DNA of 64,000 nt from Planctomycetota bacterium (GTDB lineage: Bacteria > Planctomycetota > GCA-002687715 > DRQF01), in contig JBLINQ010000008.1 in assembly GCA_047639315.1 (NCBI GenBank), forward strand, positions 810 to 64,809, read 5' to 3'. Each line of letters begins with the position of its first letter. Positions within the stretch are counted from its first letter, which is position 1. Positions 44,739 through 47,463 of the stretch are shown one piece after another. The notes under the pieces were generated by a model. The model had not been told where the DNA came from, made no database searches, and was given only the letters and a program-made list of their open reading frames with translations. A program made the translations under genes and the position numbers.

Positions 44739-46121
44739 ATGAATCGCCCCGAACCGGATGTTTCAATTTCCTCATTTGACCCCAGTCATTTCTCGACCTT
44801 TGTCTTTGACAGGGTGAGCGATTTTGGGCAAGGCTTGAGATTCCATTACCGAATCTCAGGGGAAGGCCATGACGGTCTCGAGTTCACCGAAGAAATTCAC
44901 TTCGAGGGGCATCGGGATTCACTCTGCGAAGAGCAGGAAGCTGTGCTTGAGAACTTATCCAGCCTCCTCTTTCAAGTTGCCGGCACGAGCTACTACAAGA
45001 CGGCAGCACCTCCGACCTTAACTCTGCCTTCGGGCACAGCTGGCCCAGATCGAATTGCGTTTCTCACGACGCTAGTCAAAAAAGGTCTGGCCGAATTTGC
45101 CAACGTCAACAATCTTGATCTGAGCGCAATTCGATTCTTGCCATGTCCAGGGCGTCCCAGCGAATCGCAATACGTCGTACCCGAGTCGAATAAGGTGCTT
45201 GTGCCTTTTGGTGGCGGCAAAGACTCGCTCCTATCGCTCCAGCTGGTCGTTGAAGCGGGCTTTAATCCCACTCTTTTTGTTGTTGGGCCGAACCCCGTGG
45301 CCGAAGGTTTAGCCGAGAAAACTGGGCATCCCCTGATTCGAGTGCGAAGAGTATTAGATCCTAAGATAGGCATGCTCAACACCGTCGGTGCATACAATGG
45401 GCATATCCCAGTGACCGCAGTCGTTTCCATGATCGCCGTTCTGGTGGCCGTGCGCGACGGGTTCTCGGCGGTTGTCATGTCCAACGAGAACTCTGCAAAT
45501 AAAGGGACGATGTTGGACGGTGGTGCAAAGGAAGTGAATCACCAGTTCTCCAAGGGCCTCGAATTCGAGGCCATGCTTCGCGATCAAATTCATCGATGTG
45601 GATTGAGGGGAATGGACTACTTCTCGTTACTTCGGCCTTTCTCTGAGTTGTCGATTTGCCGTGAGTTCGCTCGTCGTGGCAATCACTTTGGCGAGTTCGT
45701 GAGTTGCAACGGAAATTTTCGAAGGTCACAAACTGACGCCCGACCGCATTGGTGTATGGAGTGCTCCAAGTGCTTATTCGTTCATTTGTCCATGGCGCCA
45801 TTTCTCACTGAAGACGATATGTTCTTGATCTTCGGAGCGAATCCTCTTGGCGATGTTGCCCGCTTCTCAACTTACGAAGCGCTGATTGAGTTTAATGGCG
45901 CTCAGAGACCCTTCGACTGTGTCGGTGGCCCAGAAGAATCGCGTGCTGCGTTCGCTCTTCTGCTTGATCATCCCGTCGCCAAGTCTTATCTCGCGGTCAA
46001 GGCATTCAAAGAGAAATGGGGCCCCAGCCTACCGACGGTCGACGTGGTGTCCGAATTGGCATCGTCGGAAGATCACTTGGTACCCGAACGATTCCTCGGA
46101 GCCGTGCATGCCGTTCGCTAA
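44739..46121 (+). CDS. murL: UDP-MurNAc-L-Ala-L-Glu epimerase (MurL-like)
   Basis: PFGGGKDS, VMSNE, VNHQFSKG, SLLRPFSEL, SCNGNF, WCMECSKCLF, PFDCVG match the MurL motif order; overlaps a MurD2-like gene. Confidence 0.82.
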   Translation: MNRPEPDVSISSFDPSHFSTFVFDRVSDFGQGLRFHYRISGEGHDGLEFTEEIHFEGHRDSLCEEQEAVLENLSSLLFQVAGTSYYKTAAPPTLTLPSGTAGPDRIAFLTTLVKKGLAEFANVNNLDLSAIRFLPCPGRPSESQYVVPESNKVLVPFGGGKDSLLSLQLVVEAGFNPTLFVVGPNPVAEGLAEKTGHPLIRVRRVLDPKIGMLNTVGAYNGHIPVTAVVSMIAVLVAVRDGFSAVVMSNENSANKGTMLDGGAKEVNHQFSKGLEFEAMLRDQIHRCGLRGMDYFSLLRPFSELSICREFARRGNHFGEFVSCNGNFRRSQTDARPHWCMECSKCLFVHLSMAPFLTEDDMFLIFGANPLGDVARFSTYEALIEFNGAQRPFDCVGGPEESRAAFALLLDHPVAKSYLAVKAFKEKWGPSLPTVDVVSELASSEDHLVPERFLGAVHAVR

Positions 46122-47463
46122 GTTAGCAGCTGCACGCGTAGCGATTCTCGGATTCGGCCGAGAAGGTCGGGCGGCCCTCGCCGTCCTGAGGCAACGCTGT
46201 CCACGACTGTTGATCACCGTCATTGAAGAAGGCAAGCTGGCGCCTCAATTGGACGATGACGACGACTTACTTCACATCGTTAACCGCCAACTCTCCGTCG
46301 AAGAATTGCTTGGTTTTGATTATCTGATCAAAGCACCTGGAATCAGCTGCTATCGTCCAGATCTTGTTGCTGCACGGGCGGGCGGCCTGCAAGTTACTTC
46401 CCTCACTTCTTTGTGGCTCTCTGAGCCACATACGGCCATCACAATTGGTGTGACCGGAACCAAGGGTAAAAGTACAACGGCGACATTACTGCGCGACCTA
46501 TTGGTGTCGACTGGAGCTCACGCGGTTCTCCGGGGCAACGTCGGGCGGCCACTCTTTGATCCCCAAGAACCTGAATCCCACGCCAATTTCGTTGTGATCG
46601 AATTGTCCAGCTATCAGGTTGCAGACTTAGAGGGCTCGCTTGACCATGCGGTGCTTACGAACCTCGAACCAGAACATCTTGATTGGCATGGCAGCGAAGA
46701 ACGTTACTTCGAAGACAAACTCAAGATCACGAATTTGACTCAGTCGGTTTACGCCAATGCCGACTGCCGGCGGTTGCGGGAACGCCTAAAAGACAAGAAG
46801 CATGTTCGTTGGTTCGGTGCGGGTCACCAGTTGAGGCCGACGGCTCAAGGTGTCATGTGTGGTGATAAACTCCTGATATCCGATGCCAAGATGAAAACCG
46901 TTGGCTATCACAACCTGGTTAACGCGTGCGCGTCTTTGGCGGTTGCCTTCGATCTGGGTGTATCGCCGGAACTCGCCAAATCCGTGGCCGAGAATTTTCA
47001 ACCTTTGGCTCATCGCTTGGAAAGCTTGGGAGAGATTGAAGGCCGATTGATCGTCAATGACAGTATGGCTTCGACTCCCTTAGCCACGATGGCTGCCATG
47101 CGTGCCTTCGATGGTCGCCCGCTGCATGTCATCGTCGGTGGCGCCGATCGCGGGCTTGATCTTGCTGAATTCATAGAGTTCTTGGTCAATGTCGATGGGC
47201 CGTGCGCGATTCACCTCGTCGGTGATTTTGGTCTCCGGTTGCAAAGAAGCCTCTCGGCGACAGATGGATCTCATTCGGTTCGCGTGCAATCTGCGGCGAG
47301 CCAGGAAGCTGCGGTCGATGCATGCTGGGCGGAATCGAGGCCAGGAGATGTCATCTTGCTGTCGCCTGGAGCGCCGAGTTTTGATTGTTTCCGTGATTTC
47401 GCGGCCCGCGGTGCTGCCTTCGGCAAGTCAATCTCAAGACATGCTCCCAATGCAGCTTCATAG
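46108..47463 (+). CDS. murD: UDP-MurNAc-L-Ala:glutamate ligase, MurD2 (L-Glu) type
   Basis: ILGFGREG, KAPGIS.Y, TGTKGKSTT (K variant typical of MurD2), ELSSYQ, EHLDWHG, HRLE, VNDS, LLSPGAPSF. ATG 46108 with GGAG is preferred over the track start at 45886. Confidence 0.88.
   Translation: MPFAKLAAARVAILGFGREGRAALAVLRQRCPRLLITVIEEGKLAPQLDDDDDLLHIVNRQLSVEELLGFDYLIKAPGISCYRPDLVAARAGGLQVTSLTSLWLSEPHTAITIGVTGTKGKSTTATLLRDLLVSTGAHAVLRGNVGRPLFDPQEPESHANFVVIELSSYQVADLEGSLDHAVLTNLEPEHLDWHGSEERYFEDKLKITNLTQSVYANADCRRLRERLKDKKHVRWFGAGHQLRPTAQGVMCGDKLLISDAKMKTVGYHNLVNACASLAVAFDLGVSPELAKSVAENFQPLAHRLESLGEIEGRLIVNDSMASTPLATMAAMRAFDGRPLHVIVGGADRGLDLAEFIEFLVNVDGPCAIHLVGDFGLRLQRSLSATDGSHSVRVQSAASQEAAVDACWAESRPGDVILLSPGAPSFDCFRDFAARGAAFGKSISRHAPNAAS

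Follow-up and report, generated by a model that had tools for sequence, protein, structure and literature searches.

A predicted MurL/MurD2 gene pair in a planctomycete genus with an empty canonical murD slot

How a bacterium without a recognizable glutamate racemase brings D-glutamate (D-Glu) into its peptidoglycan is the question raised by two overlapping genes in a 64,000-nucleotide (nt) stretch of DNA from a member of the Planctomycetota. This whole stretch is called the window below; all positions are given in its numbering, and both genes lie on the + strand. An earlier note on this DNA had described a murL-like gene overlapping a murD-like gene, and both open reading frames are found on the same strand exactly where they had been placed:

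44739..46121, + strand: murL, 460 residues, stop codon TAA at 46119-46121; assigned by NF041275, Pfam, 68 invariant alignment columns and a fold model
46108..47463, + strand: gene of a murD-type ligase (murD2), start codon ATG at 46108, 451 residues; assigned by TIGR01087, five MurD2 columns and clade placement
46099..46121, + strand: murL/murD2 junction with GGAG at 46099-46102, the ligase ATG at 46108 and the murL TAA at 46119-46121; read from the sequence

Judged from its sequence, the pair is likely to be a genuine and very probably functional MurL/MurD2 module, which was laterally acquired by this genus and stands in for a lost canonical murD. Ligation of L-Glu and its subsequent unidirectional, ATP-to-AMP epimerization have been established in experiments on the orthologues from Xanthomonas, Micromonospora and Salinispora (PMC8788868). 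The reading frame of the window ligase begins, at its longest, with TTG at 45886; its true start is almost certainly the ATG at 46108, which follows the GGAG motif and gives a protein of 451 residues. The two genes thus overlap by 14 nt, which implies a predicted translational coupling of murL and murD2. At a locus from the same genus (L088), the orthologue of the ligase was also called at 451 residues with a 14-nt overlap with murL.

Signature residues of the ligase and fold of MurL

With 288 bits (cut-off 212) over profile positions 1-438 of 441, the ligase matches the murD model TIGR01087, and the Pfam domains MurD-like_N, Mur_ligase_M and Mur_ligase_C identify it as a three-domain Mur ligase. 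It was aligned with E. coli MurD, 24 MurL-adjacent ligases of named genomes, and 30 MurDs of related genomes. The 24 ligases come from Xanthomonas, Stenotrophomonas, Rhodanobacteraceae, Micromonosporaceae, Solirubrobacterales, Alphaproteobacteria, Peregrinibacteria and others; at 21 of 24 named loci examined, murL and the ligase gene are arranged as in the window. Residues D182, K348, A414 and L416 of E. coli MurD correspond to E197, R358, P433 and F435 of X. oryzae MurD2 (PMC8788868). The residue at the column of E. coli 182 governs the L-Glu preference of MurD2, the double mutation E197D/R358K changes the specificity of X. oryzae MurD2 from L-Glu to D-Glu, and replacing K319 of E. coli MurD by threonine makes this enzyme accept L-Glu (PMC8788868). 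At the four published recognition positions, the window ligase possesses Glu189, Arg348, Pro423 and Phe425. The mapping is exact, because the X. vasicola columns sit at a constant offset of +8 from the published E197/R358/P433/F435. The corresponding codons are:

46672..46674, + strand: Glu189 (E. coli D182, X. oryzae E197), predicted determinant of L-Glu specificity; from the alignment, role according to PMC8788868
47149..47151, + strand: Arg348 (E. coli K348, X. oryzae R358), predicted determinant of L-Glu specificity; from the alignment, role according to PMC8788868
47374..47382, + strand: Pro423-Ser424-Phe425 (E. coli A414-S415-L416, X. oryzae P433/F435); from the alignment
46453..46479, + strand: P-loop TGTKGKSTT of the ligase, residues 116-124, Lys119 being equivalent to E. 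coli Asn113; from the alignment

An unbiased scan of the alignment identified five discriminating columns, namely E. coli T16, N113, D182, K348 and A414. All MurL-adjacent ligases outside Saccharibacteria and Peregrinibacteria (22/22) have E, K, E, R and P at these columns, whereas the canonical MurDs (28/28, 27 of them from Planctomycetota) have G or S, N, N or D, K, and A. The window ligase shows the MurD2 state at all five and has none of the canonical residues Asp/Asn182, Lys348, Ala414 and Asn113. The TGTKGKSTT variant, which had already been pointed out in the earlier note, proved to be informative: Lys at column 113 occurs in 100% of the MurD2-clade rows and in 0% of the canonical MurDs, so that N113K is a true marker of the MurD2 clade. 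The column of E. coli K319 is hydrophobic in all MurD2s. Compared to canonical MurD of the E. coli type, the window ligase keeps Lys115, His183, the position of the carbamylated Lys198, Ser415 and Phe422 in addition to its TIGR01087 match, and differs by the exchanges D182E, K348R, A414P, L416F, N113K and K319M.

A maximum-likelihood tree computed from 55 proteins of the MurD family unites the ligases of the window's genus, four sequences in all, in a clade with support values of 100/100 that lies within the MurD2 clade (100/98). The tree computed for MurL is congruent with the ligase tree; there, too, the genus stands apart on a long branch with full support. These phylogenies and the residues Glu189, Arg348, Pro423 and Phe425 bear out the initial proposal that the pair is a MurL/MurD2 module. 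They also bear on a different explanation, according to which an ordinary MurD that adds D-Glu lies by chance beside a MurL-like PP-loop protein with a different function. The match to the generic model TIGR01087 would suit this explanation, and Arg348 is found in streptococcal D-Glu MurDs as well; however, the combination of all five MurD2 states, including Glu at column 182 and Pro at column 414, occurs in none of the canonical MurDs sampled, and the tree places the ligase within the MurD2 clade at full support. Automatic annotation probably errs in naming such ligases D-glutamate ligases. An intermediate pattern was seen at a locus of Candidatus Saccharibacteria (L069), where the MurL-adjacent ligase gene is located upstream of murL and its product falls outside the MurD2 clade: Asp182 is kept, yet Lys113, Arg348 and Pro414 are present.

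MurL matches the model NF041275 with an E-value of 1.3e-101 and 340 bits over profile positions 31-445 of 447, and contains the Pfam domains MurL_N (PF26299) and MurL_epimerase_C (PF26298). Of the 68 columns that are invariant in an alignment of 18 MurLs, it retains every one, and it is 36-41% identical to the MurLs of Xanthomonas, Stenotrophomonas and Micromonospora. The discoverers of the pathway proposed an adenylation of the α-carboxylate and found no known domain in MurL (PMC8788868). The AlphaFold model of the window protein (44739-46118) has a predicted local distance difference test value of 89.4 and a predicted template modelling score of 0.91, and contains a PP-loop core of the QueC/TtuA type. 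QatC, QueC, TtuA, argininosuccinate synthase and MnmA, without exception substrate-adenylating enzymes with a PP-loop, are its best structural matches; a profile search additionally gave a weak match to the PP-loop region of TtuA. A sequence search of the Protein Data Bank found no entry for a solved MurL structure. Two sites of the protein are invariant in the alignment:

45210..45227, + strand: PP-loop motif GGGKDS, MurL residues 158-163, predicted ATP pyrophosphatase/adenylation site; invariant
45702..45773, + strand: Cys cluster SCN...WCxxCxKC (Cys323, 339, 342, 345), putative QueC-like metal site; all four Cys invariant

The model fits the proposed adenylation and AMP-forming chemistry. 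The Cys cluster may constitute a metal site, as suggested by the match to the QueC/TtuA fold. Thus, the predicted core of MurL shares with B. subtilis QueC (3bl5), QatC (9y01) and TtuA (5b4e) the fold of PP-loop ATP pyrophosphatases, a motif of the SGGxDS type (GGGKDS in MurL) and a C-terminal Cys cluster. In contrast, sequence identity to these enzymes is merely 13-21%, and MurL adds an N-terminal β domain and a C-terminal helical domain. The reactions would differ as well: by analogy with the characterized enzymes, the substrate of the window MurL should be a UDP-sugar dipeptide and the outcome an epimerization, whereas QueC-like enzymes perform amidation or thiolation. The top fold match (9y01_B) is the QatC of the anti-phage system QatABCD, a QueC-like enzyme; MurL therefore falls into one fold group with QueC-like proteins of defence systems such as QatC and Cap9.

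Cell-wall genes of the genome and sources of D-glutamate

The genome that contains the window comprises 5.2 Mb in 280 contigs and is 89.6% complete with 2.1% contamination. Its only murD-family gene above the cut-off is that of the window ligase; neither a profile search nor tblastn detected a second one at this level of completeness, which answers the check for a canonical murD that the earlier note had called for. By means of tblastn with E. coli proteins, murA, murB, murC, murE, murF, mraY, murG, ddl, ftsI and ftsW were found, and murI, dapF and ftsZ were not. A dcw-like (division and cell wall) cluster is located on another contig (C56:1-9700) and has the order ftsI-murE-murF-ftsW-(LysM-like)-murC-murB-ftsQ; it is devoid of mraY, murD and murG. 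Contig C1 (19389-24373) contains mraY and murG together. The pair itself is flanked by genes for Lon, a membrane sulfatase/HEAT protein, an S33-type hydrolase and an S9 peptidase, none of which is a cell-wall gene, so its position outside the dcw cluster, as noticed at the outset, holds. Besides murE, murF and murC on C56, one more Mur-ligase match exists in the genome, an incomplete gene of the murC type on contig C110 (2-517, minus strand). This fragment of 172 residues (TIGR01082, 115 bits) is broken off by the contig end and could belong to an Mpl-like protein or to a MurC paralogue.

Which other enzymes could deliver free D-Glu? The best match to the glutamate racemase model TIGR00067 has 32.6 bits and is a YgeA-like racemase, which does not qualify as murI. 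This protein (C85:17580-18497, minus strand) is a broad-specificity Asp/Glu racemase according to NF007569 (310 bits) and to TIGR00035, whose cut-off it exceeds. The other genomes of the family contain no match to the glutamate racemase model at E-values up to 1e-5. Three class IV aminotransferases are encoded, namely IlvE, a PabC-like enzyme and an ambiguous protein on contig C11 that resembles branched-chain aminotransferases (BCAT). No match in 41 genomes reaches the cut-off of TIGR01121, the model of D-amino-acid transaminases, and none of the three enzymes comes near it. The anticipated absence of murI and of a bona fide D-amino-acid transaminase is supported by these searches. If the ligase were an ordinary MurD, its D-Glu would have to come from the YgeA-like racemase or from a class IV aminotransferase, and with NF007569 scoring 310 bits and a BCAT-like enzyme of ambiguous type, the genome does offer candidates. 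Beyond the signature residues and the tree, however, the order murL-murD and the overlap are as in experimentally validated lineages, and the canonical murD of the same family has been lost in this genus (see below). We thus regard an ordinary MurD with separate D-Glu supply as improbable.

Some observations do weigh against a functional MurL/MurD2 module that serves as the sole route. The YgeA-like racemase and the aminotransferase on C11 could provide some free D-Glu, and with a genome completeness of 89.6% the gene absences are not absolute. The ligase has Met at position 319, where other MurD2s have Ile or Leu. A ligase from the same genus (G002, contig C229, locus L124; LFPAHTDWH) has Ala at the column of E. 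coli 182, which is Glu in every other MurD2. Finally, MurL with its 340 bits does not reach the equivalog cut-off of NF041275, which is 700 bits. This model is named for and tuned to Xanthomonadales, and all planctomycete MurLs score below its cut-off, the best with 494 bits; missing the cut-off limits the automatic naming of the window MurL, not its family membership.

If the activities of the Xanthomonas type hold for the window pair, the MurD2-type ligase would first add L-Glu to UDP-MurNAc-L-Ala at the expense of ATP. MurL, as a QueC-like PP-loop enzyme, would then adenylate the α-carboxylate of the terminal L-Glu, presumably at its PP-loop, and convert one ATP to AMP. The ordinary enzymes MurE and MurF, encoded on C56, would carry the product onward. 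In this way, a translationally coupled MurL-MurD2 operon would place D-Glu at position 2 of the stem peptide without free D-glutamate. The murL and murD2 genes of Xanthomonas reportedly rescue the D-Glu auxotrophic E. coli strain WM335.

Loss of the canonical murD and origin of the pair

For the comparison of related genomes, G000 denotes the window's genome, G001 and G002 are members of the same genus, and G003-G008 represent sibling genera of the family. The canonical murD of this family does not belong to a dcw cluster; it lies between a small lipoprotein-like gene (geneA) and mcsA-mcsB-clpC (loci L134-L136 and L140). The order geneA-murD-mcsA-mcsB-clpC, with a murD of the canonical type, is found in G003, G004, G006 and G007 (genera g2, g3 and g5), and in the fourth sibling genus g4 (G008), murD and the start of mcsA are adjacent at a contig end. 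In the window's genome (C58:13274-15638), geneA (end at ~15006) and mcsA (start at ~14906) are only ~100 nt apart, with no remnant of murD between them. The same adjacency exists in G001 and G002; the murD slot is thus empty in three out of three genomes of the genus. Because this ancestral slot is empty, we conclude that the genus has lost its native murD and now most probably depends on the acquired pair.

A comparison of 40 related genomes detected MurL in the two others of the genus and in a single distant planctomycete, but in none of the six genomes from the family's other four genera and in none of the 14 from the rest of the order. The MurDs of these other four genera form a clade (95/91) among the canonical MurDs of other planctomycete families; the support values for this grouping are 95/91 and 100/99. 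Forcing the ligases of the genus to join the MurDs of the same family costs 154 log-likelihood units and was rejected by the approximately unbiased (AU) test (p = 4e-42). The lateral acquisition, which had been suggested merely as a possibility, is thereby substantiated by the occurrence of MurL in 3/3 genomes of the genus, 0/6 from the family's other genera and 0/14 from the order, by the AU test, and by the empty slot. A donor lineage could not be identified in either tree. Since GC content and GC content at third codon positions (GC3) of both genes equal those of the genome, the transfer was not recent; likewise, these values gave no compositional sign of a recent transfer. At the locus of the pair itself, an empty insertion site was likewise sought and is not demonstrable, as the neighbours of the hydrolase differ in the sibling genera and synteny is lacking. 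In both trees, a second member of the phylum (G030) groups with a Sericytochromatia sequence (96/84 and 100/98), which is why it must have acquired its genes separately.

The depth of the genus clade in both trees, the lack of an identifiable donor and the fully ameliorated composition would also suit a reversed history, in which the ancestor of the family, or an earlier one, already possessed the pair; the siblings would have lost it, and their canonical murD would have arrived later. We consider this unlikely. The MurDs of the siblings group with those of other planctomycete families, as under vertical descent, and the absence of MurL from 20/20 other genomes of family and order would require many independent losses; moreover, the murD slot next to mcsA-mcsB-clpC is common to four sibling genomes of three genera, and g4 is consistent with it. 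Hence, lateral acquisition remains the preferred history: an ancestor of the genus would have taken up the pair from outside its lineage and would then have lost the canonical D-Glu-type murD, which left the pair as the sole route.

An assembly with 280 contigs, incomplete by about 10% and with 2.1% contamination, could in principle contain a mis-binned pair from another organism, the true canonical murD being hidden in the missing part. The pair is located in the middle of a 66-kb contig, however. The neighbouring Lon is 76% identical to its orthologue from the same genus, and its nearest named homologue (63% identity) is from Planctomycetota. The order Lon-sulfatase-murL-murD2-hydrolase-S9 is kept in G001, G002 and an independent assembly from the European Nucleotide Archive (ENA), GC and GC3 match the genome, and the ancestral slot is present on C58 and empty in three separate genomes. 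Based on synteny, composition, Lon affinity and the empty slot, contamination and mis-binning were rejected; their probability is very small indeed. The affinity of Lon, together with the failure of tblastn to find ftsZ, also supports indirectly the earlier assumption that the host is a planctomycete.

One element of the initial interpretation had to be revised. It had been supposed that the pair replaces the racemase MurI, which is present in only four of 41 related genomes; the absence of MurI is prevalent in the Planctomycetes-Verrucomicrobia-Chlamydiae (PVC) superphylum (PMC5885031). Because most relatives are already without it, MurI is not the gene that was replaced. The displaced gene is the canonical murD of the D-Glu type. 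The proposal that this lineage makes its wall by the MurL-MurD2 route hence persists with respect to the signatures, the clade, the sole murD gene and the missing murI, and fails with respect to what was replaced.

Within the genus (window compared to loci L088, L145 and L146), sequence identity reaches only 49-52% for MurL and MurD2. The corresponding values are 65-70% for the adjacent hydrolase, 71-73% for the S9 peptidase, 76% for Lon and 86-91% for McsB. As MurL and MurD2 are less alike within the genus than their neighbours and McsB, the acquired pair seems to evolve unusually fast. In G002 (C229:8019-8885, locus L145), the orthologue of the hydrolase gene downstream of murD2 reads through one in-frame TGA.

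Distribution of MurL and comparison with other solutions

A survey of 401 evenly drawn Planctomycetota genomes from 288 genera detected MurL in 10 genomes (~2%) belonging to seven genera. The sequences indicate at least two origins of MurL in the phylum, and in four other lineages of the phylum that possess MurL, an overlapping murD-type gene again comes next. Outside the phylum, at least 598 MurL loci were found, which include Solirubrobacterales, Nocardioides, Stellaceae, Beijerinckiaceae, Peregrinibacteria, Saccharibacteria and Sericytochromatia; among the matches listed, the MurLs of other phyla are 36-41% identical to the window MurL. A review of 2021 names as hosts a few genera of Proteobacteria and Actinobacteria (PMC8788868). 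As the MurL loci extend well beyond the genera listed there, the published range is clearly too narrow. No link of MurL or MurD2 to Planctomycetes was found in the literature searched. The system itself is known and widespread; what is gained here concerns its distribution and evolution, not its mechanism.

Compared to the known modules of the Xanthomonas type, the window contains the same two genes in the order murL, murD2 with overlapping ends. The ligase has the same signature of Glu, Arg, Pro and an aromatic residue plus the Lys-containing P-loop, and MurL is homologous over its full length, including PP-loop and Cys cluster. The host likewise lacks murI and any other murD, and its dcw cluster is without murD. 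On the other hand, identity to the proteobacterial and actinobacterial proteins is only 36-43% for the ligase and 36-41% for MurL, the genus forms a deep branch of its own in both trees, MurL stays below the Xanthomonadales cut-off, and Met replaces Ile or Leu at E. coli position 319. Furthermore, the host phylum is missing from the published distribution list (PMC8788868).

A different solution to the lack of MurI in the PVC superphylum has been described for Chlamydiae, whose DapF is proposed to moonlight as a glutamate racemase dependent on pyridoxal phosphate (PMC5885031). DapF moonlighting was considered for the window's family and rejected: DapF occurs in most of the phylum, but both MurI and DapF are absent from all nine genomes of the family (9/9), so this route cannot apply to it, and the window ligase, moreover, is not of the D-Glu type. 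As the sibling genera have kept a D-Glu-type MurD and yet possess neither MurI nor DapF nor any clear D-amino-acid transaminase, they must have another source of D-Glu. It is conceivable, though we can suggest it only tentatively, that four of the family's five genera rely on an unrecognized D-Glu-forming enzyme and that the window's genus escaped this dependence by the uptake of MurL/MurD2. If this were true, genes kept in the sibling genera and lost here would point to the D-Glu-forming enzyme of Planctomycetota.

The D-Glu supply of PVC bacterial walls is only partly solved, and the genes described above suggest that one planctomycete genus uses the MurL/MurD2 bypass. The locus also offers a clean case in which an essential gene appears to have been replaced by a foreign functional analogue while the ancestral slot is visibly empty. 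Divergent MurL-like genes were noticed in two further planctomycete lineages (locus L154 in G041 and locus L155 in G045), which score 252 and 218 bits and are each followed by a murD-type gene. At locus L156 (G055), a reading frame of 1218 residues is MurL-like in one part only, which aligns with the C-terminal half of the model (105 bits).

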